A DNA stretch of 64,000 nt from Deltaproteobacteria bacterium. Its GTDB lineage: Bacteria > Bdellovibrionota > FAC87 > UBA2466. The notes beneath the pieces were generated by a model. The model worked only from the letters and a program-made list of their open reading frames with translations, was not told the DNA's origin and did no database searches. Below are positions 8,346 through 40,052 of this stretch, one piece after another; within the stretch, counting starts at the first letter, position 1, and each line of letters begins with the position of its first letter. Location of the stretch: NCBI GenBank assembly GCA_900299195.1, contig OMIX01000098.1:92342-156341 (forward strand), given 5' to 3'. The position numbers and the translations under genes are program-made.

Positions 8346-8526
8346 CGATTCACATCCCTGTGTTTCAGTCGAGATTAAATTTCTGGATTTTGTCTTAAGA
8401 AGAGAAGAGAGATAAAAAAAGAATTCTTCTTCTTCAGTATATAATTCGGCAGATTTTTTTCAACTCTTTAAATAAAATAAACTATTGATTTTACTGAATA
8501 TTCTGATTATCCTGAGAGTTAAGCCT

Positions 8527-9543
8527 ATGACTACCCAAGCCTCCATTCAAAAATGGATATCAAATTGGCTACTCAGTCAGCGACTATCCACCGATTTTTC
8601 TACCCATTTACTATTGGGAGACGGTTCTTCACGGTCGTTCTACCGAGTTTTAGGAAAAAATCAGAGTTATATTTTAATCTCTGATCCTCAATGGACTCAG
8701 ACTCAAGATTATCCCTCACATCAACAGTTTCTAGAAACTCTTGGACTTCCTGTTCCAAAATTTTTGAATTATGAGGCATCCCTTGGGTTTCTTTTAATGC
8801 AGGATTTAGGAGATGAGCTACTTCAGTTTAGAATAAATTCCGATCCCAAAAGCAAACTCGCTTGGTTAAAAGCCGCGATATCCTTGTTGGCCGATCTTCA
8901 CGGAAAAACTTTCCCGGTGCCTGAAAATCTTCCCGTTACAAGCCGATTTTTTGATGCGGATAAATATTTTTCTGAACTTCAATACACATTAGAATATTTA
9001 CATCAGAAACTTCTCAATGGTTCCCGAACAAGCGATTCTAACCTTAAAGAACTAGCTAACTTCTGCCGCACTATCGCTCAAATTGAGCCTTCTGTATTTT
9101 CCCATCGAGACTACCACTGTCGAAACATGATTATTCAAAACAACCAATTGTGGTTGATTGATTTTCAGGATGCTCGAATGGGGGCACCTCATTATGATGT
9201 CGCTAGTTTGTTATATGATGCTTATGTGCCACTTAATGACATTGACCGACAAGAGCTTTTAAAAACTTACCGAAATCAGATTAGCCAGTATGCGGTTGGG
9301 CAAAAGATTTCCTGGCATATTTTTGAAAGTGATCTGAAGCAGGTGGCTTTTCAGCGCACTCTGAAGGCTGCAGGATCTTTTGCCTCTTTTTTTATTAGAT
9401 TTGGTAAAGTCACCCACTGGCCTTATCTGATCCCCGCACTAAACTCTGCTCTTCATCTTCAGAAGTCGGGTTACGGAGTTAAGTCTAGCGTTATCGACAT
9501 TGAGAAATGGATAGCCTTAATCTCTCAGATAAAGATACAATAA
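8527..9543 (+). CDS. APH-family anomeric sugar kinase (AmgK/NahK-like MurNAc/GlcNAc or hexosamine 1-kinase)
   Basis: Brenner motif HRDYHCRNMII and IDFQDA, characteristic of aminoglycoside-phosphotransferase-fold sugar kinases. Likely start is MTTQ at 8527, downstream of a GAGAG RBS; the ORF-track start is 8485. Confidence 0.5.
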   Translation: MTTQASIQKWISNWLLSQRLSTDFSTHLLLGDGSSRSFYRVLGKNQSYILISDPQWTQTQDYPSHQQFLETLGLPVPKFLNYEASLGFLLMQDLGDELLQFRINSDPKSKLAWLKAAISLLADLHGKTFPVPENLPVTSRFFDADKYFSELQYTLEYLHQKLLNGSRTSDSNLKELANFCRTIAQIEPSVFSHRDYHCRNMIIQNNQLWLIDFQDARMGAPHYDVASLLYDAYVPLNDIDRQELLKTYRNQISQYAVGQKISWHIFESDLKQVAFQRTLKAAGSFASFFIRFGKVTHWPYLIPALNSALHLQKSGYGVKSSVIDIEKWIALISQIKIQ

Positions 9544-9547
9544 CAAA

Positions 9548-10576
9548 ATGTCTTCCTCCGTTGAAACAGCCATGGTTCTAACTGCCGGGTTAGGAACTCG
9601 GTTACACCCTATCACCCATAAAATACCCAAGCCTCTGGTTTCTATTCTTAATATACCCAATATTTTACACGTTCTTTTTTTATTGAAAAAAAGTGGGGTT
9701 TCAAATGTGGTGATGAATCTTTTTCATCTGTCAGAAGAGATGGAAAGTTTTTTCAAAAAGAAACGTTTTTTTAATCTGAATTATACCTTTACTTATGAAA
9801 ATCCTATTCTTGGAACGGGAGGTGGCGTAAAAAACGCTGCTCACCTTTTTGGGGAAAAAACCTTCGTTCTAGCTAACTGCGATTTCGTTTCCAATATTGA
9901 TATCAAAAAATTCATCCTTAAGCATTTTGAAAAAAAGGCTAAGGCCTCGATGGTTTTAATACAAGATGAAACGAGACAACATCTCTACTCTAAGGTTGGG
10001 GTGAACGATCGTGAGCTTTTGGTTAGCTTACCCAAGCTCCAAACTCGTCAGGTTCACCAACATGGAATATTTACTGGAATTCACATTTTAGACCCAGAGG
10101 TCTTAAATCATATTGAAGCTAAGCCCTGCGGAATCAATGATACTCTCTATCCGTATCTCATGAAAAACCATCCAGAATCTGTTTGTGGTTTTATTGAGCC
10201 TTCAGCTTTTTGGTATGACACTGGAGACATCCCCGCATTCTTAGAAACTTCTCACAAACTCTTATTACAGCTTTCACAAAAAGACCCATTTCTTCTTGAG
10301 GTGTTCGCAGCGCTGGGTTTAGAACTAAAAGAATTAGGCCCAGGAATTTGGTCAAACTCCGAACTGACCCTGGATCCTAAACGGATTACAGGACCCGCTC
10401 TCATTGGAGAGAATGTTCAGTTTGGAAAAGGGGTTAGTGTTGGCCCCTTCACTGTTATTGGAGATCATTCTCGAATCGATGATTTAGCTAGCATCGAAAA
10501 TTCAGTGATTCTTCCTAAGTCTTGGGTGAAATCTGGTTCAAGATTAAACCAAACTCTTTTTTTTGAACCCCTTTAA
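9548..10576 (+). CDS. Sugar-1-phosphate nucleotidyltransferase with a C-terminal left-handed beta-helix (MurU or GDP-mannose pyrophosphorylase-like)
   Basis: N-terminal MVLTAGLGTRLHPITHKIPKPLV NTP-transferase signature and a C-terminal hexapeptide-repeat region (GENVQFGKGVSVGPFTVIGDHSRID). Sits 4 nt after the kinase gene. Confidence 0.6.
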   Translation: MSSSVETAMVLTAGLGTRLHPITHKIPKPLVSILNIPNILHVLFLLKKSGVSNVVMNLFHLSEEMESFFKKKRFFNLNYTFTYENPILGTGGGVKNAAHLFGEKTFVLANCDFVSNIDIKKFILKHFEKKAKASMVLIQDETRQHLYSKVGVNDRELLVSLPKLQTRQVHQHGIFTGIHILDPEVLNHIEAKPCGINDTLYPYLMKNHPESVCGFIEPSAFWYDTGDIPAFLETSHKLLLQLSQKDPFLLEVFAALGLELKELGPGIWSNSELTLDPKRITGPALIGENVQFGKGVSVGPFTVIGDHSRIDDLASIENSVILPKSWVKSGSRLNQTLFFEPL

Positions 10577-10638: not shown

Positions 10639-12285
10639 TTAACGACCAAGTCTGGAAGGGATCTGTCCTCGAGCCGAAGGATTAGCACCCATTCTACCTT
10701 GGATTCCGCTTCTTGCATTTCCTCTAAATCGAGATGGCATAACCCGAGGACCAAATCCAGTCGCACCTCGAGAAAATCTGGGGCCCGCAAAGTTTTGAAA
10801 TGCGTTGCCGACAGTTCCATTGACGTTAGCCACCCCATTTGCAGGGTAGGGGCCACGATTCATCATCATCTGTTGGAACATTTGATTTTGTTGTTGCATA
10901 GTTTGTAGCAAAGCTGCCGTTGTGGGATCAGGCTGAGGAACTGCAGGTCTGCTGGGAATATCGTCGTTAAACCGACTGGGTGTATAGGGCAAAATAGGCT
11001 GAGCCGGTCCATTGTTTGCCAGTGCTCCCATCGGGAAGGGTGGGGGCGGTGGCAACTGGGGCATGGGTTGTGGTTGAAACGGTTGTTGTTGACTAGGTGG
11101 AATGCTCACTGAGGGACTGATCTGCGGACCTTGTTCACTTCGATCAGAATTTCCCCTGGACACATTCGGACGCTGGGCTTGTCCCAAAGCACCTTGCAAG
11201 GCTCTTAATGCCTGAGCACTATCGTTGTTTTGGTCATCGAATTGCCTTCTTAAAAGCTCATCCTGAATTTCTCTATCGCGATCTCTATCATCAGTAGCTC
11301 TTCTAAGAGCATCTAAAGCCGCTTGAAGCTGATTATTTTGGAATCCTCCCAACGAAGGATCCGCTATAGGAACCTGATTGGGGGGAGTAAAAACTCCCGG
11401 CGTTTGAGCTCCGGGCAGTTGAGCCCCTGGATTTCCTCCACCTATGGAGGGATCAACTACAGGTGGAACTGGCTGAGAGTTGTCATTACTTGCTGAATTA
11501 GTAGTCCCTGATTGGGAAGACTGGGTTCCTTGGCTTTCAGTTGCCACCTCATCCAATTTGCACATTTTGGATTCTTCTTTAGAATCTTTGATAGCCTTTC
11601 TTACGCTATCTTCTTCAATCTGTTTTTCGTCCACTACTTTTTTATCCCAAGTGCCCCCTTGAATTATTTTAACTATAGAAACTAACTGGGATGAAAGATC
11701 TTTGTCTGCTTTTTCAAATTCTTTAATTCCTGCTTTAAACTTAGTTGCTTTATCTTCAAGAGCCTTTTGTATTCTGACCACCAAAGTATTGAGCTCTTTT
11801 TCTTTAACGGTTCCCTTGGAATCAAACTTGCCTATCACTTTTTGATCCTTAATGAAATCTAAGAATTGATTTAACGTTTTTAACAACTCTGAAGAAACCT
11901 TGTCCTCCGTCGCTGTTTCATTACATTTAACAAGCTTGTTGGCATAGGCTTTAACAGCTTCTATTTGTTTTTTTAGATCTAAAATTTTATCGGCGTCTAA
12001 CGTTACTGAGGCCGCATTTTCCTCTGCCTCTTTTTTAAATTGATAAACAATCGTAGAGCCTGCTTTTTGCTCCTCTAAAAACTTGATGAGTTCATCAAAG
12101 GTTGGAGAAACCTTTGCTTTGTCTGATGTACTTCGGCCGCCTGTTCCTGATTCAGCATTGTGCTCACCAGACCCATTCGGTTCGTCAGCATAGGATGGAT
12201 TGCCCCCACCCAAACAACAAAGAACGATTAAACTAACCGCCTTAACTTGATACCATTTCATCTTCAACCCCGCTTTCACAAGCAC
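10639..12285 (-). CDS. Secreted or lipoprotein with a coiled-coil N-terminal half and a Pro/Gln-rich, RG-rich low-complexity C-terminal half
   Basis: Signal peptide with a possible lipobox (VLCCLGG), a Lys/Glu-rich helical region, then PPSQQQPFQPQPMPQLPPPPPFP and a C-terminal RG-rich tail (RFRGNARSGIQGRMGANPSARGQIPSRLGR). Confidence 0.5.
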   Translation of the reverse strand: MLVKAGLKMKWYQVKAVSLIVLCCLGGGNPSYADEPNGSGEHNAESGTGGRSTSDKAKVSPTFDELIKFLEEQKAGSTIVYQFKKEAEENAASVTLDADKILDLKKQIEAVKAYANKLVKCNETATEDKVSSELLKTLNQFLDFIKDQKVIGKFDSKGTVKEKELNTLVVRIQKALEDKATKFKAGIKEFEKADKDLSSQLVSIVKIIQGGTWDKKVVDEKQIEEDSVRKAIKDSKEESKMCKLDEVATESQGTQSSQSGTTNSASNDNSQPVPPVVDPSIGGGNPGAQLPGAQTPGVFTPPNQVPIADPSLGGFQNNQLQAALDALRRATDDRDRDREIQDELLRRQFDDQNNDSAQALRALQGALGQAQRPNVSRGNSDRSEQGPQISPSVSIPPSQQQPFQPQPMPQLPPPPPFPMGALANNGPAQPILPYTPSRFNDDIPSRPAVPQPDPTTAALLQTMQQQNQMFQQMMMNRGPYPANGVANVNGTVGNAFQNFAGPRFSRGATGFGPRVMPSRFRGNARSGIQGRMGANPSARGQIPSRLGR

Positions 12286-12816
12286 TTTAAATTCGAGTGA
12301 AGCCTTTCAGCTTCAGCTCTCTCCTCCGCAAAATACACATATGGAACTTATTCACTGCAGGGTTGCAATGAGTGTTCCAGACTTCCGCCTGTGCGAGTAT
12401 GAGCCGTCTTTATGCTGTATTCGAAATGAGGGGTCTAAGTTTTAATGTTTTATTTTTTGACGTTTTTCGGATGCCTAACTTGTAGGTTATTGAAATCTTG
12501 TGTAGATTTTTAAACTCAGTTCTTTAAAATATAGGGTGTCAGTTAATTGAACACTCAAGATTTGAACCTGAGAATACAGGAATTTTTTTAAAAATTTCAA
12601 AGACTCAGAAACCATCACATCACAAGTTCAGTTAACAATTCGTCATGTTTGAAATGTAAATAAGTTGCTATCATTCTTGGGACACAAAAAACCGCCAACC
12701 GAGAGACCCCTAAAACGGCTTTTTTGTCTTATAATATCAGTGGTTTAACGGATTGGGGGCAGGGGGTCATACTCGTTGACTGCCCCCCACCCTTGTGTCA
12801 TAAACAGAGGCCTATT

Positions 12817-13737
12817 ATGGAAACTATCGATCAAAACGAAATCAAAACGGCAACGCCGGGTTCTTCTAGTTTTATGTTTCAAAACAGTCCCTCGATGCAA
12901 GAGCTGTTATTAAAACCCATCTCCAAAGACAACCCCATTGTAAATGATGCCAAGATTAGACGTTTATATCTTCAAGCCTCTTCCCAACAATGGTATGCCC
13001 CTCAGAAAATGAACTTTGATCTTCCTGTAGACCCAGACCCAGAGACCTGCAAAGTGTGGGCTCGAATTGCTGAAGTTTTTTATACCCTTGAAAAAATGGG
13101 CTTAAACGTAATCGCCAACATGATGCCCAAAGCCGCGGGAAAATTAAAAAGTGACGAAGTCGTTAACTACCTCGCCGTTCAATGTCATGATGAAGCACGC
13201 CACGTTTTTGTTGTGGAGAATTATTTAAAAAAACTTGGGGCTCCGCCTGTTTATAACTACAAATACCATGTACTAGGGCAAGCCGCCTCGATGGGTTTTT
13301 ATCGAGTTGAAAATTGGATGTTTTCAACTTTGTTTTCAGAAAATTTTGCTTCCGTATTTTTAAGAAGAGCCAAAGCGGGTCGAATCGATCCTTTTGGAGC
13401 TGAGATGTGCAGATACTTAATGATTGATGAAAGCCGTCATCTACATTTCTTGCATATCGTTCTCCCCGACGTCATGGACCGCTTGTCATTAATGGGAAAA
13501 ACTTATGTGAAGGCCGCTCAATTTTTCATTATGAAATTCAGTGAACTAGTTTCAAGAGGGCTTGCGTCCGATGCGGCCTACGTCGGAATTAATCGAAGAG
13601 ACATGTTAGAAGAAATTTTTGAAAATGTTGAAAAAGCTTATGAGGGGTTCGGAGTCACTCGGCAATTTTTACGCTTCCCCAAAATTACTGATTCTGGGGT
13701 TTCAACAGCTACAGTGTCTTATCCCTCGGTGAATTAG
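12817..13737 (+). CDS. Ferritin-like diiron-carboxylate protein (AurF-type or diiron oxygenase-like)
   Basis: Two E...ExxH motif pairs (LEKMG..DEARH and SENFA..DESRH) typical of four-helix-bundle diiron enzymes. ATG at 12817 follows a GAGG RBS; the ORF-track start of 12724 has no RBS. Confidence 0.45.
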   Translation: METIDQNEIKTATPGSSSFMFQNSPSMQELLLKPISKDNPIVNDAKIRRLYLQASSQQWYAPQKMNFDLPVDPDPETCKVWARIAEVFYTLEKMGLNVIANMMPKAAGKLKSDEVVNYLAVQCHDEARHVFVVENYLKKLGAPPVYNYKYHVLGQAASMGFYRVENWMFSTLFSENFASVFLRRAKAGRIDPFGAEMCRYLMIDESRHLHFLHIVLPDVMDRLSLMGKTYVKAAQFFIMKFSELVSRGLASDAAYVGINRRDMLEEIFENVEKAYEGFGVTRQFLRFPKITDSGVSTATVSYPSVN

Positions 13738-13746
13738 GTAGTTTGT

Positions 13747-13977
13747 ATGGCTGATAGAGAAGACCGTTACGAAGATAATATCCCTGGCAAATGGTACGTT
13801 GATAAAAAATGTATCCTTTGCAGTGTTTGTTCTGAAGCCGCTCCGAATAACTTTAAAGAAGCCCCAAGCGGGGATCATGACTTTGTTTATAAGCAACCTG
13901 AAACCCCTGAAGAAGAAATGCAATGTGAGGAGGCCATGGTAGCCTGCCCAGTCGAAGCTATTGGTAATGATGGCTAA
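13747..13977 (+). CDS. Small single-cluster [3Fe-4S]/[4Fe-4S] ferredoxin
   Basis: 76 aa with YVDKKCILCSVC ... ACPVEAI, the layout of 7-8 kDa ferredoxins that serve as redox partners. Confidence 0.6.
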   Translation: MADREDRYEDNIPGKWYVDKKCILCSVCSEAAPNNFKEAPSGDHDFVYKQPETPEEEMQCEEAMVACPVEAIGNDG

Positions 13978-15100
13978 CCCCAAAAACGTCCTTGTTGCCA
14001 TGAGTGGTTTCAAGGGAAGTCTTACTAACATTGAAGCCTGTCAATGTGTCGCTTCCGCTTTAAAAGATCTTAACTTAGCTCACTCTATTGTCCCCATCGG
14101 AGATGGCGGTAAGGGGACCGGCTTGGCCCTGAACCTGGCTCTTGGGGGTGAGTTTCATTCAATCGATTCGATCGATCCTTTGGGAAGACCCATCAGTGGT
14201 ACTCTTCTGTGTTTTCCAAATTCACAATCTCCCTCGAGAATCTACATCGAGAGTAGTTCTGTTTGTGGATACACTCTCATTAAGGAAGAAGAAAAAAACG
14301 CGTTACGAGCATCGAGTCGCGGTTTGGGGATAATGCTCAGAGAGTCTATTCTCCGTTGGAAGCACTCGCTTCAAGAAATCTGGATTGGGCTTGGTGATTC
14401 TGCCATCTCAGACATGGGAATGGGAATGCTTTCAGAGCTAGGAGTGCATTTTTTAAACTCAAAACAAGAACCGATCCCAGCCACCACTGATCATTTAGTT
14501 CACATAAATGCTTTTTCTCCACCCAGTCTTCACTTAAATTCTATTTCTTTAACTGTTCTTTGTGATGTATCAAATCCAGTTTGTGGCCCACAAGGAAGTG
14601 CGGTAACTTTTTCTCCCCAAAAGGGAGCAACTCCCGAACAAGTCGCTCTAATAGCTAGAGGCATGGAAAACTTTGCAACACGAATTGAAAACAAACTTCA
14701 TCGATCGCTAAAATACATTCCGATGACAGGATCTGCAGGGGGACTCTCTCCGGCTCTTTTTTCATTTTTCAATGCTAAATTAGTTCCTGGTTGTGAATTT
14801 CTACTTTCCGAAATCGGATTTGATGAAAAAATATCGCAGCATGATTGGGTTGTTACGGGAGAGGGAAGAACCGATGCCCAAACTCTCAAAGGAAAAGCTC
14901 CTGCCGTAGTTTTCGAACACTCAAGAAAACAAAACAAACAGTGTCTTTTTATTTCTGGATCGTTGGGTGAAGGATTAGACCCGATTTCGAAAGAAGGTGG
15001 GATGGTGGGGATTTATGCCTGCGGTAGAGAGCCCTCCGCCAAAGAAGCTTTAACTCGAAAAACTAGAGAGGTTTTCAGTCAGTTTAAAAGCAGTTTTTAG
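13961..15100 (+). CDS. Glycerate kinase
   Basis: 379 aa with the GarK/GlxK family signature VVTGEGRTDAQTLKGKAPAVV and N-terminal VLVAMSGFKGSL. Start overlaps the ferredoxin stop. Confidence 0.75.
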   Translation: MVMMANPKNVLVAMSGFKGSLTNIEACQCVASALKDLNLAHSIVPIGDGGKGTGLALNLALGGEFHSIDSIDPLGRPISGTLLCFPNSQSPSRIYIESSSVCGYTLIKEEEKNALRASSRGLGIMLRESILRWKHSLQEIWIGLGDSAISDMGMGMLSELGVHFLNSKQEPIPATTDHLVHINAFSPPSLHLNSISLTVLCDVSNPVCGPQGSAVTFSPQKGATPEQVALIARGMENFATRIENKLHRSLKYIPMTGSAGGLSPALFSFFNAKLVPGCEFLLSEIGFDEKISQHDWVVTGEGRTDAQTLKGKAPAVVFEHSRKQNKQCLFISGSLGEGLDPISKEGGMVGIYACGREPSAKEALTRKTREVFSQFKSSF

Positions 15101-15109
15101 GTGAGCGAA

Positions 15110-15469
15110 TTATTTGTCGGTGCCTGTTTTCTTTTCGGCATTATCGCCCAGATCGGAATACATGACCGACCTTACTGTCCATTCTTGGGTCTTCGCGGTT
15201 AGTTCAGTGGGCTGAACCATGAAGATGGTTTCCCAAGGACATATCTTTGCGCAAGCTTCACATCCAATACAACGGTCTTGATCTACTTCAACTACTCTCA
15301 TGAAGTCAGGATGTTCCACCCCGGGAACTTGTTCAATGCAATCCACCGGACAGACGGGGATACAAGCGTGGCAACCCGTGCATCCACGCTGGTCTATGAT
15401 CGCATGGGAACGGGGTGGTTTTTTTCGCTCTGCTTTTCCTTCAGCTGGATTTCCTGATCTCTTTTCCAT
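15110..15469 (-). CDS. 2x[4Fe-4S] dicluster ferredoxin
   Basis: Two CxxCxxCxxxCP motifs (CTGCHACIPVCP and CIGCEACAKICP). Confidence 0.65.
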   Translation of the reverse strand: MEKRSGNPAEGKAERKKPPRSHAIIDQRGCTGCHACIPVCPVDCIEQVPGVEHPDFMRVVEVDQDRCIGCEACAKICPWETIFMVQPTELTAKTQEWTVRSVMYSDLGDNAEKKTGTDK

Positions 15470-15515
15470 AGTTTCGTTCTTATCTTATCAGATAGCTTCT
15501 AGGCAAGCTATCCTA

Positions 15516-16295
15516 TCACTTCTCCCATTCCCCGACCTGTCTTTCTAACTCGCTGATTTCCCAACCATAAAAGCCGCAAGGGGGTGAAATCCAAACCTGG
15601 GGATGATCTTTGAAGAGGTGATTTAAGTTATTGTTTCCTGCCTTAAGCCCACCCCAAACCAAGTTTTTCCCTTTTTGGCAAAGCCAGCGACCATAGTTTT
15701 CCTCTTCCTGGGGAGTCATGGGGCTTTGAGTAAAATCAAAGGATAAAAAATCGAAAAAGTTAATATGGTCTACAAAGGGAAAGGGACGAAGAGTCGCACA
15801 ACTATGCACCCCAAGCTTAATATCCCAGTCAACCTCCTTCACCGATTGTAAAAAAGCTGTATAACCTTCACAAATATAGGGAAGAGCGCTATTCCAAAAG
15901 GGTTCGTCTATTTGTACCCACAACTCTCCTTGAAAAGCTGCCTCTCTCAACTGTTTGCGCAACCCTTTCCAGAAGCCAACCCATAGAGGGGCAACATCTA
16001 AAAACTTGGCACTCATCGAACGGGCCACCGTATAAGGACCGGCAATCTGAATTTTATAGCGAGGACTGTCAACAAACTCATTTTGAAACAACTCTAAACA
16101 GCTTGAAGCTTTTTCATCCCAAAAGCCAAGATCAATGCCTCGCAAAACCTGACCGATCATATCTTCTTGGGGATGGCTTTCCGGCAGCTGCGGAAGAAAG
16201 GGTAAATGGCTGGAATGTTTTTTGACAAATTCAATCGCTTCTATTGGGTTTGAATGAGGAAGGCTTCCCAAATAAAAGAGTTTTTCTTTGTTCAT
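15516..16295 (-). CDS. UroD/MetE-like (cobalamin-independent methionine synthase superfamily) protein of unknown function
   Basis: 259 aa with a WVQIDEP motif resembling the IQIDEPA box of the MetE/UroD-fold family, plus conserved His and Cys residues (LGVHSC, PPCGF). Starts 3 nt after the lipB stop. Confidence 0.35.
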   Translation of the reverse strand: MNKEKLFYLGSLPHSNPIEAIEFVKKHSSHLPFLPQLPESHPQEDMIGQVLRGIDLGFWDEKASSCLELFQNEFVDSPRYKIQIAGPYTVARSMSAKFLDVAPLWVGFWKGLRKQLREAAFQGELWVQIDEPFWNSALPYICEGYTAFLQSVKEVDWDIKLGVHSCATLRPFPFVDHINFFDFLSFDFTQSPMTPQEEENYGRWLCQKGKNLVWGGLKAGNNNLNHLFKDHPQVWISPPCGFYGWEISELERQVGEWEK

Positions 16296-16298
16296 GCG

Positions 16299-17051
16299 TT
16301 AATCAACTAAAGATGCAACAGGCTTTGTCTTTTTTTTACCTTTGGGACTCAACGCCATTTGTGCGGGCAATCTATTAAACTGCTTTGAAAAATGCTTAAT
16401 AAAACTTTCTTTTACCAGTGCTAAGGATGGGCTCTGATCCCCCAACTCTTCCTTCATTGAAGTCATCACACTTGCTTTAAATCCACAGGGATCAATTTTG
16501 GAAAACCCTGATAAATCGTTGTTTACGTTAAGAGCAGAACCATGAAAAGTGATCCAAGAGGATATGGCAATTCCAATACTCGCTATCTTCTTTTCTTTGC
16601 CCACAACCCAAACTCCTGTAGCTCCCTTTCGCCGCTCTCCTTCAATATTAAATTCTTTTAAAACGTGAATGAGGGTGTCCTCTAATCGTCTCAAGTGAAG
16701 ATGGGCATCTTTCTCCGATTCTTTTAATGACAATAAAGGATAACAAACCAATTGCCCCAGATTATGAAACGTAGCCTCTCCTCCTCGCTCGATGGCATAC
16801 GCATTTTTCAAATTCCAAGGAATTTCTCCTTTGCTCTTTCGTCCAAAAGTATAAACCTCAGGATGCTCGACTAAAATCAATCGATCTGGATAGTAACTGT
16901 TGACCTTTTTTTGATGAACGACGTCTAACTGAGTATAATAAACCTCGTTATAGTCACTGACTCCTCGATCATCGACCTCAAAAAAAGCTATCGGCACATT
17001 ACCCTCGCTTAGGTTTGTAAATGTGAATGGCTTTATAAAAAGCGGCTTCAA
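16299..17051 (-). CDS. lipB: Octanoyltransferase (lipoyl-protein ligase B)
   Basis: RGGEATFHNLGQLVCYPLL and KIASIGIAIS (catalytic Lys region) match LipB. The N-terminal start is uncertain; the ORF-track start overlaps lpdA by about 50 nt. Confidence 0.75.
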   Translation of the reverse strand: MKPLFIKPFTFTNLSEGNVPIAFFEVDDRGVSDYNEVYYTQLDVVHQKKVNSYYPDRLILVEHPEVYTFGRKSKGEIPWNLKNAYAIERGGEATFHNLGQLVCYPLLSLKESEKDAHLHLRRLEDTLIHVLKEFNIEGERRKGATGVWVVGKEKKIASIGIAISSWITFHGSALNVNNDLSGFSKIDPCGFKASVMTSMKEELGDQSPSLALVKESFIKHFSKQFNRLPAQMALSPKGKKKTKPVASLVD

Positions 17052-18423
17052 CAGCTTCTGGCATCACTTCGGGTAATGTTGGGTGCGTGTGAATCGTTCG
17101 CACTAAATCTTCCACCGTTGCTCCCATTTCAATCGCTAATGCAGCTTCGGCAATCAAATTTGAGGCCTCAGGCCCTACGATGTGAACCCCTAAAATAGCC
17201 TCGGTTTTGTCGTCGATAACAACCTTAACGAGACCATCCGAATCGTTCATCGCCAAGGCTTTTCCAGAAGCAGCAAAGGGGAACCTTCCAACTCTGACTG
17301 TAAATCCTTTTTCAGTGGCCTCTTTTTCGGTAAGTCCGGCAACTGCGATCTCTGGATCACAAAAGACCGCCCAAGGAACGGTTTTATAATCTTTAAACGA
17401 AGGCTCTCCTGCTATCGTCTGTGCTACCAATAAACCATCCATGGTTGCTCGATGGGCTAATTGCGGAGCCCCAGCAACATCCCCGATCGCAAAAATATGA
17501 GAAATATTCGTCAGGCTTTGGTTGTTGGTGAGGATATTCCCTCTGGGATCCAGCTTAATTCCAATTTTCTCCAAACCCATATTGTCTGAATTGGGTTTTC
17601 TTCCTACAGACACTAAAATGACATCGGCGGGTAGAGTAAGCTTCGATTTATCTTTTGTTTCAATTTCTAAATTGAGTTTACTAGCCTTTAAAGCATCCTT
17701 TTCTTTAATCCCCAGGGCTTTAGCACCCGTATGAACTGTGATTCCAAAGTGCTTCATTTTTTTTTGAACCACAGAAACTAATTCGTTGTCCACTGTAGCC
17801 AAAAGCTGATCGAGAGCTTCAACGATGGTCACTTTCGATCCTAGCTTCGCGTAAACAGTTCCAATCTCAATTCCAATAAATCCGCCACCAATCACCACCA
17901 TCTCTTTAGGAAGGTTTTTTAGAGACAGTGCTTCAGTAGAACTTACAATGTTCTTCCCGTTGAAGGGGAGAGTAGGAATCTGGGCTACCCGAGAACCCGT
18001 TGCGATCACAAAGTGTTTCGCAGTGACCGTTTCTTTTCCGCCGCTCGAAGTAATTTCAAGAGTTTTACTATCTTTAAAAGAAGCTGTGCCTTTAAGGATC
18101 TCAACGCCATTAGCCTTAAGAAGACCTTGAACTCCACTGGTGAGTTTTTTAACAACCCCCCCTTTCCACTCTTGCATTTTTTCCAGATCGCACTCTACTG
18201 ACTTTGCGGTAATGCCCATTTCATGGGCTTCGTTTTTCATCTTAAAAAACTGCGAACTTCCATAGATCAGAGCTTTGGACGGAATACAACCCACATTTAA
18301 ACAAACCCCACCAAAATTTTCCTTTTCGATAATGGCAGTCTTTTTTCCAAGTTGAGCCAATCGAATGGCCGTAGGATATCCCCCCGGGCCCGCTCCAATC
18401 ACCACAGCATCAAAAGTTTTCAT
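16999..18423 (-). CDS. lpdA: Dihydrolipoyl dehydrogenase (E3)
   Basis: VVIGAGPGGY FAD motif and the redox-active disulfide GGVCLNVGCIPSKAL. 474 aa. Confidence 0.9.
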   Translation of the reverse strand: MKTFDAVVIGAGPGGYPTAIRLAQLGKKTAIIEKENFGGVCLNVGCIPSKALIYGSSQFFKMKNEAHEMGITAKSVECDLEKMQEWKGGVVKKLTSGVQGLLKANGVEILKGTASFKDSKTLEITSSGGKETVTAKHFVIATGSRVAQIPTLPFNGKNIVSSTEALSLKNLPKEMVVIGGGFIGIEIGTVYAKLGSKVTIVEALDQLLATVDNELVSVVQKKMKHFGITVHTGAKALGIKEKDALKASKLNLEIETKDKSKLTLPADVILVSVGRKPNSDNMGLEKIGIKLDPRGNILTNNQSLTNISHIFAIGDVAGAPQLAHRATMDGLLVAQTIAGEPSFKDYKTVPWAVFCDPEIAVAGLTEKEATEKGFTVRVGRFPFAASGKALAMNDSDGLVKVVIDDKTEAILGVHIVGPEASNLIAEAALAIEMGATVEDLVRTIHTHPTLPEVMPEAVEAAFYKAIHIYKPKRG

Positions 18424-19703
18424 GCAAACACCAATCTTGAAGGTTCTGATAAGAAGTAAATCAATCGATTCATAAATCGTGCAGCATCTGCTCCATCAAC
18501 AACCCGATGATCTACCGACATCGATAAGAACATCACATCTCCGATGACAATCTGGTCATCTTTGACGATGGGTCGTTTTCTAATGGCGTTAACTCCCAAG
18601 ATGGCCACTTCCGGATGATTAATGACAGGAGTCGCTAGCACTCCACCAATCGATCCTGCATTAGTGACTGTAAAGGTTCCCCCCTTCATGTCATCCAAGG
18701 CAATTTTACCGGTTCGTGCTTTTTCAGAGAGCAACTGGATTTCAGTAGCCAGTTCCCAAATTGATTTTCGATCAGCAGCTTTGATTACCGGAACCATCAA
18801 TCCATTCGGCGTGTCCGTAGCCACACCAATGTTGTAATCGCCCTTTAAAATAATTTCCTGTTTCTCGTCGTCTAAAGAAGAGTTGAGATAGGGGAATTCC
18901 ATGAGAGCGGGAATCAATGCTTTAATGATAAATGGCAGATAAGTAAGTTTGACCCCTCTTTTTTCTGCCTCTTCTTTAGCAGCAGCTCGCAACTTAACGA
19001 CCGCCGACATATCAACCTCTTCCACATAGGTGAAATGGGCCGCGGTGTGTTTTGAATAAGACATGGATTCAGCAATTTTTTTCCTAACCCCTTTTAAAGG
19101 CACCACTTGAAGAGCGCCTCTAGCCACAGCAGGAACACTTGCACGTTGAGTGGGTGCAGTTGGAGTTACTGCAACTGCTGTATGCGAAGTCCGTGGAGTG
19201 GCGGCTTGGTGTCCTTCATGAGCCAACTGAACATCCATTTTGGTGACACGTCCGTGAAGGCCTGTGCCCTTCACGGTTTTCAGATCAACTCCCAAATCTC
19301 TAGCTAATTTCCGTGTGGCCGGCGTTGCAAGAATATGGAAAGGCAAGGGTTCTTCAACGGCCTCCAAGGGCTCTACCACTTTTTCAGTGGGTTTAGTGGC
19401 TGAAGTTGAAGCAGATGCCATCGTCGGTTTTGATTCGGTTTTTTCCGGAGCCTTCGAAACCGAGGCCTTACCATTTTCCGAAATACGAATGATGACTTTT
19501 CCCACTTCAATGGTTTGTCCCTCTTGAGCCAAAATCTCACTGACTGTACCTGCAACTGGTGAGGGGATTTCCACCGTTGCCTTGTCAGTCATTACTTCCA
19601 CCATGGGTTGATCTGCAGCCAGAGACTCTCCGGTTTTTACCAACCACTTAACAATTTCTCCCTCGTGAACGCCTTCACCAATATCAGGTAATTTAAAGTC
19701 CAT
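18420..19703 (-). CDS. pdhC: Dihydrolipoamide acyltransferase (E2) of a 2-oxo-acid (pyruvate-type) dehydrogenase complex
   Basis: N-terminal lipoyl domain (MTDKATVEIPSPVAG), an E3-binding region and the catalytic DHRVVDGADAARF motif. Confidence 0.85.
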   Translation of the reverse strand: MDFKLPDIGEGVHEGEIVKWLVKTGESLAADQPMVEVMTDKATVEIPSPVAGTVSEILAQEGQTIEVGKVIIRISENGKASVSKAPEKTESKPTMASASTSATKPTEKVVEPLEAVEEPLPFHILATPATRKLARDLGVDLKTVKGTGLHGRVTKMDVQLAHEGHQAATPRTSHTAVAVTPTAPTQRASVPAVARGALQVVPLKGVRKKIAESMSYSKHTAAHFTYVEEVDMSAVVKLRAAAKEEAEKRGVKLTYLPFIIKALIPALMEFPYLNSSLDDEKQEIILKGDYNIGVATDTPNGLMVPVIKAADRKSIWELATEIQLLSEKARTGKIALDDMKGGTFTVTNAGSIGGVLATPVINHPEVAILGVNAIRKRPIVKDDQIVIGDVMFLSMSVDHRVVDGADAARFMNRLIYFLSEPSRLVFA

Positions 19704-19714: not shown

Positions 19715-20689
19715 CTAAAAGTTTTTAACTTTTCCAACTGCCAAAGCCACTCTCTCAGGATCTGGCATATAAATGTGCTCCAAGGTGTAAGGGAAGGGGG
19801 TATCCAACCCAGTAACTCTCACAATCGGGGCTTCCAAATATAAGATGGCTTCTTCATTAATAAGTGCAGAGAGCTCTGCACCAAATCCACAAGTTTTGGG
19901 AGCCTCATGAACAATCACGACTCTTCCAGTTTTTTTCACTGATTCAAAAATAGTCTCTTCATCCAAAGGAACCAACGACCTTAAATCAATGACTTCGCAA
20001 TCAGCACCGCGAGGCTCGCAAAGCTGGGCCGCTTTCATACAAACTGGAACCATGGCGCCCCAGCACAGAACAGTCACATCTTTCCCAGGTCTCACAACTG
20101 AAGCTTTACCAATTTCAACCGTGTAACTCTCTTCAGGCACTTCTCCTTTTACGGAGCGATATAACCTTTTGGGCTCCAGGAACATAACCGGATCTTCATC
20201 TCGAATGGAACTAATCAGAAGGCCTTTAGCATCGTACGGATTTGAGGGAACCACGACTTTTAATCCAGGTGTGTGAATAAAGTAAGCCTCTGAGCTTTGA
20301 GAATGATAATGCCCACCACGAATCCCCCCTCCGTAAGGGGTTCGAATCACCATGGGGCAGGTAAATCCTCCACCACTTCGATACCTAATTTTAGCCACTT
20401 CACTGACAATCTCATCAAAAGCGGGATAAATAAAATCCATGAACTGAATTTCAGGAACAGGTCTTAAACCGTTAACCGCCATTCCCATAGCCATTCCAAT
20501 GATTCCGCTTTCATTGAGCGGAGTATCCAAAACTCTTTCTTCACCAAATTCTTTTTGAAGCCCCTCGGTGGCTCTAAAAACACCGCCGTTTACACCCACA
20601 TCCTCACCCATGAGAACAACTCTAGGATCTTGAGTCATCTCACACATCAACGCATCTCTTACTGCTTGTACTAAAGTTAAATTCGCCAT
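19715..20689 (-). CDS. pdhB: 2-oxo-acid dehydrogenase E1 component, beta subunit (pyruvate dehydrogenase type)
   Basis: 324 aa transketolase-like C-terminal E1-beta sequence, sitting between the E1-alpha and E2 genes. Confidence 0.85.
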   Translation of the reverse strand: MANLTLVQAVRDALMCEMTQDPRVVLMGEDVGVNGGVFRATEGLQKEFGEERVLDTPLNESGIIGMAMGMAVNGLRPVPEIQFMDFIYPAFDEIVSEVAKIRYRSGGGFTCPMVIRTPYGGGIRGGHYHSQSSEAYFIHTPGLKVVVPSNPYDAKGLLISSIRDEDPVMFLEPKRLYRSVKGEVPEESYTVEIGKASVVRPGKDVTVLCWGAMVPVCMKAAQLCEPRGADCEVIDLRSLVPLDEETIFESVKKTGRVVIVHEAPKTCGFGAELSALINEEAILYLEAPIVRVTGLDTPFPYTLEHIYMPDPERVALAVGKVKNF

Positions 20690-20698: not shown

Positions 20699-21919
20699 TT
20701 AAAGTGGAAATGCCTCACTGGTATTTTCAAACTTACCCCTAAGCTCGACTTCATGAAGAAGCTCCGCTTTTTGTTTTTTTAATTGAGGTGTCAGCTCGGC
20801 ATAAACGTCTTCAAAAAGATCCATCGGGTCTGGAGCGGGCTCTTTCTCTGCTCTTTCGACCGCTTCTGCAATCTGAGCTTTGATCTGCTCTTGAAGAGAC
20901 TTCTCTTTCTTTTCATCCCACCATTTCTTGCTGTTGAGATAATTTCTTAATCTCACAATAGGATCCCGTTTCGTCCAAGCTTGATATAATTTTTCATCAC
21001 GGTATCGAGTAGGATCATCTGAGGACGAATGCGGTCCCATACGAAAGGTCACACACTCAATCAGTGAAGGGCCTTCTCCACGTCTGGCCCTGTCCACCGC
21101 CTCTTTAGTCGCCGTATAAACAGCCAAAGCATCATTGCCATCAACGGAAACTCCAGGCATTCCATACCCCACCGCTTTATCGACGAGTCTTTTAGCTCCC
21201 GTTTGCTTAGAAAGGGGAACTGAGATCGCATATTGATTATTAGTCACTACAAAAACGGTGGGCGCCTTATAAGCGCCAGCAAAGGTCAAGCCAGTGTGGA
21301 AATCATTTTCCGAAGTTCCTCCGTCTCCACAATAACTAATCGCTATCTCTTTAGTTTTAGAAATTTTTGCAGCCATCGCAGCGCCCACTGCCTGAATCAA
21401 TTGGGTAGCAATAGGGCTTGAAACACTAAACATTTTTATTTTAGGAAAACTGTAATGAACCGGCATTTGCCTGCCTTTAGACAAATCACCTCGATTTCCC
21501 CAAAGGTTGCAAAGCATTTCGTACAATCCCGCACCTCGATATAGAAAAATACCCGGTTCGCGATAAGAGGGGAAAACCCAATCTTTTTCTAGTAAGGCCG
21601 CTGCCGTTCCGGTTTGAATGGCTTCTTGCCCAAAAGAGGGTACGTAAAAACCAATTCGTCCTTGTCGCTGAAGCATCATTCCTCGCTCATCAAAAGCGCG
21701 GGTTAACACCATATTGTGATACATTCTTAGGACAACTTCTTTATCGATCTTGGGTTCAACTTTAGAATCTACCGTCCCATCCTCTTTCATAATGCGAAAA
21801 CAGTCCTCTCTAAGAACTGTGCATTTTTCGGAGTCGCTGATAGTTTTACTTGGTTTCTTTTTCATTTCTACCGTTTGGCTTTTAGATTTTTTTTTCATTA
21901 AGTCGGTTCCTGAATTCAT
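20699..21919 (-). CDS. pdhA: 2-oxo-acid dehydrogenase E1 component, alpha subunit (pyruvate dehydrogenase type)
   Basis: ThDP-binding E1-alpha sequence (GDGGTSENDFH). ATG at 21919 lies 1 nt after the lipA stop; the ORF-track start of 21970 would overlap lipA. Confidence 0.8.
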   Translation of the reverse strand: MNSGTDLMKKKSKSQTVEMKKKPSKTISDSEKCTVLREDCFRIMKEDGTVDSKVEPKIDKEVVLRMYHNMVLTRAFDERGMMLQRQGRIGFYVPSFGQEAIQTGTAAALLEKDWVFPSYREPGIFLYRGAGLYEMLCNLWGNRGDLSKGRQMPVHYSFPKIKMFSVSSPIATQLIQAVGAAMAAKISKTKEIAISYCGDGGTSENDFHTGLTFAGAYKAPTVFVVTNNQYAISVPLSKQTGAKRLVDKAVGYGMPGVSVDGNDALAVYTATKEAVDRARRGEGPSLIECVTFRMGPHSSSDDPTRYRDEKLYQAWTKRDPIVRLRNYLNSKKWWDEKKEKSLQEQIKAQIAEAVERAEKEPAPDPMDLFEDVYAELTPQLKKQKAELLHEVELRGKFENTSEAFPL

Positions 21920-21920
21920 G

Positions 21921-22817
21921 TTAATGAGCCCTCGAACGCAAAAGTCCTTCAAGAAATTTTTCAGCCGCACGATACGAGCTTCTTACTAGAGGTCCTGACG
22001 GGACACACAGAAAACCTTTTTCTAATCCCACCCTCTCATACTCTTTGAAAATATCGGGTGGCACATATTCCTCTACCGGTAAATGCCAGGTCGTCGGTCT
22101 CAAATATTGCCCAAAAGTTACAATTTGGACACCTACGGATCTTAAATCGTCCATGGCTTTAAAAATTTCTTCTCGGGTTTCACCTAAACCCACCATAACT
22201 GACGACTTAGTGTAAATATTTGGATAATAACTTTTCACTTTTTTTAGTACCCCAAGGGATTGGTGGTATCCACAACGCCGATCTCGGACAGTCGTCGTTA
22301 ATCTTTCAACGGTCTCGATGTTGTGAGCAATGACATCAACTCCCGACAGACAGATTCTTTCAATACTTTTTTCATCACCTTGAAAATCAGGAATTAATAC
22401 TTCAACTAAAGTTTCAGGACTCTTTTTTTTGATGGCTTCAACAGTTTGAGCAAAATGATCCGCGCCGCCATCAGGTAAATCATCTCGATCAACCGAAGTT
22501 AAAACGACATATCGAAGTTTTAATTCAGCTATCGCTTTCGCAACGTTTTCGGGTTCGTTCGGATCCAATACCCCTTTAGGGTTTCCGCTTTTGACATGAC
22601 AAAAACGACAGGCTCGAGTGCATGTGTCTCCCATCAACATCACCGTGGCAGTTCCTCCGCCCCAACACTCTGCTACATTTGGACATCGAGCTTCTTCACA
22701 AACGGTATGAAGCTTCAATCCCTTCAGAAGTTCCTTAATTCGAGAATAATTCTCTCCACCCGGAGGTCGAATTTTCAGCCACTCGGGCTTTGGATTGGTA
22801 TGAGAAACTGAGGCCAT
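21921..22817 (-). CDS. lipA: Lipoyl synthase
   Basis: Radical-SAM CTRACRFC and the auxiliary-cluster motif [13 protein letters not shown]. Confidence 0.9.
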
Positions 22818-22893: not shown

Positions 22894-23544
22894 TCAGACC
22901 CCACGCTCGTTGTTACCCCAAATCTCTTTGTGCTGTTGAGTTTGAAGGGTAACAGGGGCCTTACTGGACAGAATCCAACTAGCAAGTTGCGCTGGCTTTA
23001 CCAGTCCATAGGCCGGAGAATAAAGAACTGTACACCGCTCATGTAGCTTGTGCTTGTCACAAACCCCTTGAGCCCAATCAAAATCCGCCTTGGAAGCGAC
23101 AACAAACTTGAATTGATCATGTTTTTGAACCAAATCAAAGTTTTTCCACTCCATTTTATCTGACTCACCACTGTCGGGGCATTTAACGTCTATTACTTTA
23201 ATGACTTCAGCGGGAACGTGCTCAATCGAATGACTACCATTGGTTTCAAGAGAAACCGTATATTCCGCAGCCAATAATGCCTTTAAAAGCTCCAAAGTGC
23301 CCCGTTGACTCAAAGGTTCTCCACCGGTGACACACGCATAGCTAGTCTCAAAGGGCTTAATTTTCTCTAGAATCTCCGGGACGGTCATAAGATTTCCCTC
23401 CCAGTAGGCATATTTGGTATCGCACCAATGACAACGTAAATTACAATAGGATGTGCGGATAAAGGCAGTTGGTTTGCCCGCAAGTAGACTTTCACCTTGG
23501 ATGCTGTGAAAGATTTCATTAATTTTTATTTTTACTTCTTCCAT
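22894..23544 (-). CDS. queE: 7-carboxy-7-deazaguanine synthase (radical SAM)
   Basis: IFHSIQGES...CNLRCHWCDT matches the QueE N-terminus. Starts a few nt after the atpC stop. Confidence 0.75.
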   Translation of the reverse strand: MEEVKIKINEIFHSIQGESLLAGKPTAFIRTSYCNLRCHWCDTKYAYWEGNLMTVPEILEKIKPFETSYACVTGGEPLSQRGTLELLKALLAAEYTVSLETNGSHSIEHVPAEVIKVIDVKCPDSGESDKMEWKNFDLVQKHDQFKFVVASKADFDWAQGVCDKHKLHERCTVLYSPAYGLVKPAQLASWILSSKAPVTLQTQQHKEIWGNNERGV

Positions 23545-23549
23545 CAGCA

Positions 23550-23942
23550 CTAAAGTGAAATATGCTGTCGGACTAAGGCGCGTTCTAACTTTAATTGTTG
23601 TTTTTTGAAATCGCTCTCGCTCAAAGTTCCCATCAACGCTTGTTCAGCGCGCTTCTGAGCGGCTTGAGCTCTAGCTTTATCGATATCTTTCGACTCTTCT
23701 ACCGTATCGGCTAAAACCAAAACTTTGTTGTTCCGTATTTCAGCAAACCCATAGCTGACAGAAAATTTGCGCTCTTTTCCGTCTTTAACGAAGACAAGCG
23801 GACCCGTACTCAGAAGCGTCAATAGGTCGGTATGCCCATCTAAAACCTGAAGTTCGCCTTTAGCCCCAGGTAACTTAACGCTATCTGCAGGGGCTCCATC
23901 GACCAACTTCCTAGTTGGGGTAACAATGTCTATCTTCAACAT
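23550..23942 (-). CDS. atpC: F1 ATP synthase epsilon subunit
   Basis: 130 aa, positioned after atpD; N-terminal beta-sandwich sequence MLKIDIVTP... Confidence 0.8.
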   Translation of the reverse strand: MLKIDIVTPTRKLVDGAPADSVKLPGAKGELQVLDGHTDLLTLLSTGPLVFVKDGKERKFSVSYGFAEIRNNKVLVLADTVEESKDIDKARAQAAQKRAEQALMGTLSESDFKKQQLKLERALVRQHISL

Positions 23943-23945
23943 GAA

Positions 23946-25379
<1,434 letters not shown>

Positions 25380-25391
25380 TTAAAACAAAAT

Positions 25392-26276: not shown

Positions 26277-26288
26277 GAAACTCTCTCA

Positions 26289-37361: not shown

Positions 37362-37363
37362 AT

Positions 37364-37621
37364 TTACCCTACCTTATCGACTACTGGGTCACTTCCAAAG
37401 GACCCCATGGGATGACACTTTAAAAGTCTCTTTATACTCAGCAAACTTCCAACGACAAGCCCATGTTTTTTGAGAGCAAGAGAACTGTACTGGGAGCAAG
37501 TGGGTTCGAACCGACAACAAGCCCCAAAAGAAAAAAATTGATGAAATCCCCGAACAAAAACTACCACCATTTGCGGCCAGTTTTTTAAGAGCCTATTCAC
37601 TTTTTTTGTTCTCCTCAACAA
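37364..37621 (-). CDS. yidD: Membrane protein insertion efficiency factor YidD
   Basis: 85 aa with the [10 protein letters not shown] motif. Confidence 0.8.
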
Positions 37622-37976
37622 ACCTGGCGGCGGAAATCAACTGCTTCTGAACATCGGAATAATCTAACAATTTCCATTCCTTGGATAAGTTGTCTCGGCC
37701 AATAATATTCAGATCTGTTTTGGGAAAGAGTTTAGCATTTTTTCTAAACGTCTCTCTAATCAGCCGTTTGATTCGATTCCTAGCCACAGCAGAACTTAAA
37801 ACCTTTTTGGAAATTGAAATTCCCAACCGGCCTTTTCCCTCTAAACCTAAAATGAACATGAAGGATTCAGTTTTAAACCTTTTAAAGGATTTAAACCTAA
37901 AGTCTTTTTTCTTCTTTAATCTCTTAGACTTAGAAAGCTTCTGACTGCGCTTCGTTCGATGGATTAAATCTTCCAA
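37593..37976 (-). CDS. rnpA: RNase P protein component
   Basis: Basic 127-aa protein with the RNR-like motif [13 protein letters not shown]. Sits between rpmH and yidD. Confidence 0.8.
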
Positions 37977-37987
37977 ACCAATGAAAA

Positions 37988-39998: not shown

Positions 39999-40052
39999 AC
40001 AGGATCGACAATGTTATTGATGACTTAACTGAGTTGTTAACATATTAACAAT

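Follow-up and report, generated by a model that had tools for sequence, protein, structure and literature searches.

The interval from 12817 to 16295, part of a window of 64,000 nucleotides (the whole stretch of DNA that was analysed), is probably where two convergent transcription units meet, each of them conserved separately in an uncultured Bdellovibrionota lineage, and we reject its reading as one redox module. The plus-strand unit carries a diiron-carboxylate protein, a small ferredoxin and a glycerate kinase, and the minus-strand unit is the lipA-PDH-lipB operon with its last two genes. The features of both are as follows.

12286-12816, no strand: divergent intergenic region of 531 bp between a P/Q-rich 548-aa gene (minus) and the diiron gene (plus)
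12817-13737, plus strand: ferritin-like diiron-carboxylate oxygenase, 306 aa, Pfam AurF family, 2-His/4-carboxylate site (Pfam and ligands)
13747-13977, plus strand: fdx76, single-[4Fe-4S] ferredoxin (Fer4_13), 76 aa (Pfam and cysteines)
13961-15100, plus strand: glxK, glycerate kinase, class I, GlxK/GarK family (Pfam and NCBIfam)
15110-15469, minus strand: fdx119, 2x[4Fe-4S] ferredoxin, 119 aa, last gene of the lipA-PDH-lipB operon
15516-16295, minus strand: short MetE-like (beta/alpha)8 protein, 259 aa, with H-x-C...C zinc-type and QIDEP motifs, coupled to lipB
16299-17051, minus strand: lipB, octanoyl transferase (NCBIfam NF010925, 161.5 bits, cut-off 155; TIGR00214 match)
16999-18423, minus strand: lpdA, PDH complex gene
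18420-19703, minus strand: E2, PDH complex gene
19715-20689, minus strand: E1beta, PDH complex gene
20699-21970, minus strand: E1alpha (TIGR03181, 440.6, cut-off 411.35)
21921-22817, minus strand: lipA, lipoyl synthase, first gene of the minus-strand operon (ORF and sequence)

The first-pass annotation had described the interval as a single redox mini-cluster. Its five ORFs and their family assignments are correct in all coordinates and structural statements, including the 9-nt spacer between the diiron gene and the 76-aa single-cluster ferredoxin, the overlap of the ferredoxin stop (13975-13977) with the glxK ORF start at 13961 (the ATGs at 13967 and 13970 overlap too), and the convergent 2x[4Fe-4S] ferredoxin and 259-aa QIDEP protein on the opposite strand, the latter tightly coupled to lipB with a start 3 nt past the lipB stop. 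The cluster itself did not survive comparison, as the convergent pair is part of the lipA-PDH-lipB operon and stays in place even without a diiron gene in the vicinity. Operon limits are drawn here from gene spacing only, and a scan of 12200-16400 returned promoter-like and terminator-like sites in the numbers expected from shuffled sequence. The intergenic region 12286-12816, which is partially conserved with one relative (L100), presumably holds the promoter of the plus-strand unit. No Rfam riboswitch or leader RNA reached a gathering score upstream of the diiron gene or elsewhere in the whole window, and the single match within 12200-12900 was at chance level (E 0.95).

The minus-strand genes form what is, judging from their spacing, an eight-gene operon in the order lipA-PDH(E1a,E1b,E2,E3)-lipB-MetE-like-fdx, and in relatives lipA occupies the same place in the gene order and carries LIAS_N and Radical_SAM domains. 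Both the window and the loci L001, L002, L081/82, L083, L084, L085, L086, L087-89, L095, and L100 have the MetE-like gene downstream of lipB, directly after it in most and with intervening genes in L083 and L086. The gene for fdx119 comes after lipB or after the MetE-like gene in the majority of relatives. The two units also occur apart. L081 has the full operon from lipA to lipB, the MetE-like gene and the ferredoxin, with neither a diiron gene, fdx76 nor glxK downstream, and six loci (L007-L011 and L017) keep the diiron gene and fdx76, with or without glxK, and have no PDH operon. It may be that LipA, a radical-SAM enzyme, draws reducing equivalents from fdx119. The 259-aa protein has the fold and the conserved, zinc-ligand-type H-x-C...C motif of the MetE/UroD-like (beta/alpha)8 superfamily, matches no Pfam family, PF01717 (MetE catalytic domain) included, and drew nothing meaningful from a search of PDB sequences; among 28 MetE-like members two reach E about 4e-3 against PF01717. 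It belongs to a tight clade with 11 representatives at E<=1e-30. Such a protein may be a thiol-directed enzyme tied to lipoylation or PDH and could represent an accessory factor in protein lipoylation that has yet to be described, and its gene after lipB offers an inexpensive and testable lead into lipoate/PDH biology.

On the plus strand, conservation has to be read against its background: the entire 14-kb region from an AmgK-like gene to PDH is syntenic among relatives, therefore adjacency within it says little on function, and co-conservation of the diiron gene, ferredoxin, glxK and convergent pair was not separable from this general synteny. Neighbour genes in the fetched loci are greedy non-overlapping ORF calls, with Pfam/NCBIfam confirmation for some only. 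Of 30 clade-A loci, 29 have fdx76 on the strand of the diiron gene and downstream of it; the two are directly adjacent in 15, and in 14 a DNA methylase (PF01555), glycosyltransferase or outer-membrane-protein gene is inserted between them. In L025 the diiron gene occurs with glxK and the ferredoxin is missing. Glycerate kinase follows the ferredoxin in 22 of the 29 informative loci and is absent from seven that have both other genes (L004, L009, L015, L020, L084, L095, and L097). The first-pass annotation had named a lack of co-conservation in relatives among the results that would refute it, and such a lack is found in part.

These counts bear on the possibility of one catabolic module made up of diiron oxygenase, ferredoxin and glycerate kinase, in which a small substrate is oxidised to glycerate and then phosphorylated, much as the first-pass annotation had suggested with its pathway ending in glycerate phosphorylation. 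The order of the three genes is kept in the 22 loci, fdx76 and glxK overlap both here and in many related loci, and one locus (L100) has lost both the equivalent of window positions 12900-13732 and glxK, keeping fdx76 between them at 88% identity, a single case that could reflect a functional link of the diiron gene and glxK. Set against this are the seven loci without the kinase, the locus without the ferredoxin, the unrelated genes that interrupt 14 loci, the block-wide synteny, and the fact that no glycerate-producing enzyme is encoded in the locus, and we regard such a module as decidedly improbable. In the two-unit reading, glycerate kinase is linked to the diiron enzyme by position and not by a shared pathway. 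Its own identity is clear at the family level (class I; 272.6 against TIGR00045, cut-off 168.45; 314.6 bits and E 1.1e-93 against PF02595, Gly_kinase), an assignment that does not distinguish 2- from 3-kinase specificity. In this lineage, start/stop overlap and tight spacing join functionally unrelated genes, such as a DNA methylase between oxygenase and ferredoxin, and gene adjacency by itself offers no basis for reading a pathway.

The ferredoxin belongs to the single-cluster type (64.4 bits against PF13370, Fer4_13; cut-off 24.5, E 1.5e-17), and C22, C25, C28, and C67-P68 of its CxxCxxC...CP motif are invariant. It had been thought dedicated to the diiron enzyme, however, it is retained in L100 where the diiron gene is deleted and L090-92, L098, and L101 likewise have orthologues (range 75-88% identity) but no diiron gene, so that its presence is not confined to loci with that gene. 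One ferredoxin 80% identical to fdx76 lies between trxB and bacA. Thirty soil loci with more distant ferredoxins, each including 1.5 kb or more of sequence upstream, have no diiron gene, and the commonest downstream neighbour in that lineage, present in 56 of the fetched loci, was ThiD-type kinase-like, a call made by eye only. A TrxR-like gene beside the ferredoxin in L090 was considered as a ferredoxin reductase and set aside, its CATC motif being that of thioredoxin reductase. We conclude that fdx76 is a shared, general-purpose carrier, and, judging from gene order and family, it is also the probable electron donor of the diiron enzyme. It would pass single electrons to the diiron centre, as in aldehyde-deformylating oxygenase (ADO) and acyl-ACP desaturase, and the reduced centre would then activate O2 and oxidise a small substrate. 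Against such a transfer, no ferredoxin lies within 5-8 kb in the nine paralogue loci.

The diiron protein scores 39.8 bits against Pfam PF11583 (AurF; gathering cut-off 29.6, E 3.8e-10), and its homologues carry precomputed PF11583 annotations. Two E...ExxH pairs, E92/E126xxH129 and E175/E205xxH208, were recognised correctly at the outset, and none of the six residues varies among 30 homologues. In the structural model, which is confident (pLDDT 86.7), these ligands sit on helices 75-110, 113-139, 163-187, and 192-222, a predicted four-helix bundle that, together with the two pairs, places the protein in the ferritin-like diiron-carboxylate superfamily. The modelled fold is nearest to ADO and R2lox, and AurF and CmlI were not its closest structural neighbours. 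A profile search of PDB sequences gave nothing meaningful, with ADO at E 0.54 and neither AurF nor CmlI recovered. The protein remains, as first proposed, uncharacterised: it has no characterised homologue and is an orphan within a known enzyme superfamily. Its orthologue group spans 55-89% identity across the uncultured Bdellovibrionota radiation. The literature on PF11583 that we found concerns DnfA, phosphonate clusters and similar topics and does not describe this family, and no paper found joins Bdellovibrio, diiron and ferredoxin. A paper on the CylC halogenase proved to be unrelated.

What such an enzyme might oxidise can be considered from its site and from its paralogues. Should it be a true N-oxygenase of the AurF/CmlI/DnfA type, it would convert an amine to a hydroxylamine or nitro product, with nitrite release by a nitronate-monooxygenase (NMO)-like enzyme and export by a NarK-like transporter at some paralogue loci. 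The Pfam score above the gathering threshold is consistent with this, as are the paralogues translationally coupled to PF03060 NMO genes (L018, L023, and L093), the NarK-family transporter (E 2e-77) and tyrosine-decarboxylase-like gene that accompany one of them (L023), and a tyrosine-decarboxylase-like gene directly downstream of another paralogue (L094). However, the third histidine ligand of AurF, which we take from the published structure to be His223, precedes the second ExxH glutamate by four residues, and the window protein has in that position, four before E205, a Leu201 that is nearly invariant in 30 sequences. The failure of the profile search to recover AurF or CmlI and the absence of NMO, NarK and decarboxylase neighbours from the window's clade also count against an N-oxygenase, and we consider this reading unlikely. 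A lipid-type substrate, be it fatty aldehyde, acyl chain or bound fatty acid, with ferredoxin as reductant, would fit the 2-His/4-carboxylate site, which matches that of ADO, acyl-ACP desaturase and R2lox, and the position of the ferredoxin gene after the diiron gene, ADO and soluble desaturases being enzymes that take electrons from ferredoxin. Yet identity to ADO is 14-17%, no ADO or desaturase family was matched in Pfam or NCBIfam, all 30 loci lack acyl-ACP reductase, ACP and lipid genes, and the paralogue contexts are those of amino-acid catabolism, not lipid metabolism. This makes a lipid substrate distinctly unlikely.

In three paralogue loci (L028-30) the order is Crp-HPPD-PhhA-diiron with 3-4 nt junctions, and in a fourth (L019) it is HPPD-diiron; with the NMO, NarK-like and decarboxylase-like neighbours these hint at tyrosine- or phenylalanine-derived compounds or amines as substrate, a hint that rests on paralogues at 53-63% identity and outside the window's orthologue group. 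A search of the window found no PhhA, HPPD, NMO, tyrosine decarboxylase or methylase. Dehalococcoidia and Spirochaetia homologues at 33-38% identity have malic-enzyme-like, DinB-like, NUDIX-like and other neighbours (translations judged by eye), and these neighbourhoods look like general synteny and offered no hint of function. Taken furthest, the paralogue loci would make the family a new functional class of ferritin-like oxygenases that act on aromatic amino acids or amines in primary catabolism, a proposal that we hold to be very improbable. Under it, the diiron enzyme would N-oxygenate an amine formed by the decarboxylase, and the NMO-like flavoenzyme would turn the product into aldehyde and nitrite, the latter leaving by NarK-like export; where the diiron gene stands in an HPPD-PhhA-diiron operon, its product might instead account for the missing conversion of tyrosine to 4-hydroxyphenylpyruvate, and the window orthologue would be a ferredoxin-coupled housekeeping version. 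The occurrence of paralogues inside phenylalanine/tyrosine catabolic operons would give concrete candidate substrates. If the reading of an orphan enzyme beside a separate lipoate/PDH operon holds, the diiron protein stands for a well-conserved orthologue group of O2-activating enzymes without a characterised member or solved relative.

Among known systems, the diiron protein resembles the arylamine N-oxygenases AurF and CmlI and their relatives DnfA and TsnB7 (PF11583) in its size (about 300 aa), in its ferritin-like four-helix bundle with a diiron site and in the spacing of the two E...ExxH pairs. Leu201 sets it apart from the seven-ligand site of AurF and CmlI. Unlike cyanobacterial ADO, which works with ferredoxin/FNR, it has about 70 additional, highly conserved N-terminal residues, comes from a host that is not a cyanobacterium and has no acyl-ACP reductase partner, no reductase gene being present in the loci. 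Class I RNR R2 differs as well: the residue four after H129 is variable in the window protein, with no radical-site tyrosine, and the locus has no R1 gene. The short MetE-like protein is closest to the barrels of MetE, 'core-MetE' and MtaA/UroD but, at 240-260 aa for proteins of its type, is small and lacks the N-terminal domain; unlike MetE, it stands after lipB in a PDH/lipoate operon in every context examined, a setting that to our knowledge has not been described for MetE. Human FDX1 with LIAS is a ferredoxin-supported lipoyl synthase system. The ferredoxin fdx119 differs from FDX1 in being of the bacterial 2x[4Fe-4S] and not the [2Fe-2S] adrenodoxin type, but is comparable in that it is encoded in one operon with lipA and lipB and in the same orientation.

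The first-pass annotation had placed five genes in one redox mini-cluster around a diiron gene. The five-gene finding is real, though more ordinary than was proposed, and two modest leads merit bench work; what the analysis shows is the identity of each gene, the conserved ligands, the folds, the synteny tallies and a natural deletion. The five genes form two units, and all earlier structural statements about them are borne out by the ORF list and family scans:

12817-13737, + strand: diiron protein, 306 aa (Pfam AurF, 39.8 bits, cut-off 29.6)
13747-13977, + strand: fdx76, a 76-aa Fer4_13 ferredoxin (family scan), 9 nt 3' of the diiron ORF
13961-15100, + strand: glycerate kinase ORF, glxK (TIGR00045, 272.6, cut-off 168.45), overlapping the fdx76 stop
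15110-15469, - strand: fdx119, a 119-aa 2x[4Fe-4S] ferredoxin (ORF list and family scans), converging on the + strand genes
15516-16295, - strand: MetE-like protein, 259 aa, without a Pfam match, converging on the + strand genes
16299-17051, - strand: lipB, its stop 3 nt before the MetE-like start
21921-22817, - strand: lipA, beyond lpdA, E2, E1beta and E1alpha on the same strand

Since lpdA, E2, E1beta, E1alpha and lipA continue on the - strand, that unit reads lipA-PDH-lipB-MetE-like-fdx119 (PDH being E1alpha, E1beta, E2 and E3, or lpdA), and the window E1alpha exceeds the equivalog cut-off for pyruvate dehydrogenase. The nearest public locus is that of the Bdellovibrionaceae MAG UBA2466 (diiron protein identity 85%), and the related genomes are uncultured Bdellovibrionota throughout, some carrying 'Deltaproteobacteria' or 'Pseudomonadota' MAG labels. 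An AmgK-like sugar kinase (APH fold) and, 4 nt later, a nucleotidyltransferase of 342 aa that ends in a hexapeptide-repeat domain and resembles MurU or mannose-1-phosphate guanylyltransferase occupy 8485-10576; both score under NCBIfam cut-offs and the pair is syntenic in at least 19 related loci. The protein encoded at 10639-12285 (- strand) is 548 aa long, with an N-terminus resembling a signal peptide and a long C-terminal half rich in Pro, Gln and Gly; it matched no family in Pfam or NCBIfam, is kept in close relatives only and diverges fast (25-55% identity). Upstream of lipA (22894-27797, - strand), QueE (7-carboxy-7-deazaguanine synthase; 261 bits, slightly below the cut-off of 300) and then ATP synthase epsilon, beta, gamma and alpha genes (assigned by eye from translations) form a long co-directional run heading away from oriC. 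The oriC region spans 35742-46274, with yidC and rnpA (- strand), then dnaA (38391-39734), dnaN, gyrB and gyrA (+ strand), and GC skew switches from about -0.12 to about +0.15 near 40 kb of the window; the five-gene interval therefore lies ~25 kb from oriC.

Comparison loci (L-numbers, from other genomes or metagenomes) comprised 80 from a one-genome-per-species scan, searched with 13 window-region proteins, and others reached via the MetE-like protein and the ferredoxin, all tallied together. Clade A, the orthologue group of the window diiron gene, occurs in 30 distinct loci, and a neighbour-joining tree sets it apart from two clades of paralogues. The complete 14-kb block is syntenic in most of the 30, in the order AmgK-like kinase, sugar-phosphate nucleotidyltransferase, P/Q-rich protein, diiron, ferredoxin, glycerate kinase and convergent PDH/lipoate operon; in L007-L011 and L017 the + strand genes are retained but the PDH operon is missing. 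In 29/30 loci the ferredoxin lies downstream of the diiron gene and shares its strand; it is directly adjacent in 15. A PF01555 DNA methyltransferase (~285 aa, DPPY motif), co-oriented and tightly packed, separates the two genes in 14/30 (L003-L006, L012-L014, L017, L021, L022, L024, L026, L031, L084), some of which additionally have a glycosyltransferase or outer-membrane-like gene; no restriction partner is visible at those loci, and the methyltransferase gene was not found in the window. glxK follows in 22 of the 30 and is missing from seven, and a single locus combines the diiron gene with glxK but lacks the ferredoxin. Neighbourhood conservation upholds the diiron-ferredoxin order and, only in part, the co-conservation of glxK; the suggested oxygenase-ferredoxin-glycerate kinase pathway is unsupported, with glxK missing from seven loci and the methyltransferase between genes in 14. 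Unrelated functions are mixed within the + unit itself in half of the relatives.

The four cluster cysteines of fdx76 are invariant among homologues, and the protein is strongly conserved (71-88% identity in the best 120 of 344 matches). One copy, at 80% identity, is flanked by trxB (CATC motif) and bacA and has no diiron gene in the surrounding 5 kb, and the upstream diiron gene is likewise absent from L098 and L101 (ferredoxin 75-79% identity). In a large soil lineage (59-69%), 30 loci that extend 1.5 kb or more upstream have no diiron gene; the commonest gene downstream of its ferredoxin (56 fetched loci) is, by eye, ThiD-type kinase-like, so a kinase again lies downstream, but a different one from glxK. 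The fdx76-like ferredoxin is widespread in soil metagenomes (L106-L174), typically with a TauE/SafE-like membrane protein upstream (by eye). L100, a close relative of the window (ferredoxin 88%, LpdA 89%, E1beta 95% identity), carries a natural double deletion (L100 4848-5332): its diiron ORF is cut to the first ~27 codons (window 12900-13732 absent), ~100 bp stand in place of glxK (window 13978-15109 equivalent), and the ferredoxin between them is intact. This double loss could be coincidence, or a hint that the diiron protein and glxK work together. With fdx76 intact there beside a truncated diiron ORF, and relatives occurring without a diiron gene, the ferredoxin is not dedicated to the diiron enzyme, contrary to the earlier description; by analogy with aldehyde-deformylating oxygenase and soluble desaturases, it would reduce the diiron centre.

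The convergent pair, formerly counted in the single cluster, belongs to the lipoate/PDH operon: L081/L082 keep the complete lipA-E1a-E1b-E2-E3-lipB-MetE-like-fdx119 operon, followed by unrelated genes, with no diiron gene nearby. The proposed coupling of the MetE-like gene to lipB holds, as it lies 3 nt away in the window and 3' of lipB in all the contexts looked at, mostly adjacent and often overlapping or 3-10 nt apart (other genes intervene in L083 and L086). L084-L086 have lipB-MetE-like without fdx119, and in most clade-A loci without the MetE-like gene fdx119 directly follows lipB; thus each is independently lipB-linked. H164, C166, C240 and the Q-I-D-E-P motif are kept in 28 MetE-like homologues, and the structure model is confident (pLDDT 91.1). 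Pfam gave no match for the window protein and weak Meth_synt scores in only 2/28 members; in an exhaustive HMM search the number of representative clusters was 11 at E<=1e-30 but 807 at E<=1e-3, and the distant clusters sampled are mostly unannotated too. The protein represents a compact MetE/UroD-superfamily clade with a zinc-thiolate-type motif, whose fixed place after lipB is, as far as we found, undescribed. It may act on a thiol, and fdx119 may serve LipA.

All nine paralogue loci lack a ferredoxin gene within 5-8 kb and sit in amino-acid catabolic contexts, including a nitronate-monooxygenase-like (NMO, PF03060) flavoprotein that is unusually long (470-500 aa):

L028 5399-8855, L029, L030: Crp-HPPD-PhhA-diiron, diiron last, junctions of 3-4 nt
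L019 6824-8789: HPPD-diiron, diiron last
L018: homogentisate dioxygenase-like fragment beside a LysR-type-regulator-like gene (regulator by eye)
L018 2788-4133, L023 5369-13121, L093 6001-8198: diiron-NMO, overlapping junctions, translationally coupled
L023: diiron-NMO with flanking genes for a porin, a nitrate/nitrite transporter of the NarK family and a tyrosine-decarboxylase-like protein of 740 aa
L094: tyrosine-decarboxylase-like gene immediately 3' of the diiron gene

No pterin-4a-carbinolamine dehydratase gene is visible near the HPPD(-PhhA)-diiron loci, and none of the partner genes (PhhA, HPPD, NMO, tyrosine decarboxylase) was found in the window. The aromatic amino acid/amine theme is repeated in both paralogue clades and offers the family's best available hint of chemistry, drawn from gene context in proteins only 53-63% identical to the window enzyme, which may act on a small metabolite of the aromatic or amine type.

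Among 5.8 billion proteins searched, 172 relatives of the diiron protein were recovered, none informatively named, and PDB sequences gave no significant match to either its profile or its single sequence. E92, E126, H129, E175, E205 and H208 are invariant in a 30-homologue alignment (51-89% identity), and a confident AlphaFold model (pLDDT 86.7) places these ligands on four long core helices. The R2 radical-tyrosine position is variable among homologues. Together with the residue at position 201, these features mark the protein as a predicted 2-His/4-carboxylate diiron oxygenase, new and uncharacterised within a known superfamily. AurF has a third histidine ligand, which in the published structure lies four residues N-terminal to the second ExxH glutamate, whereas the same alignment has a nearly invariant Leu201 at that position; the protein is thus inside the Pfam AurF family, yet fails the N-oxygenase structural hallmarks.
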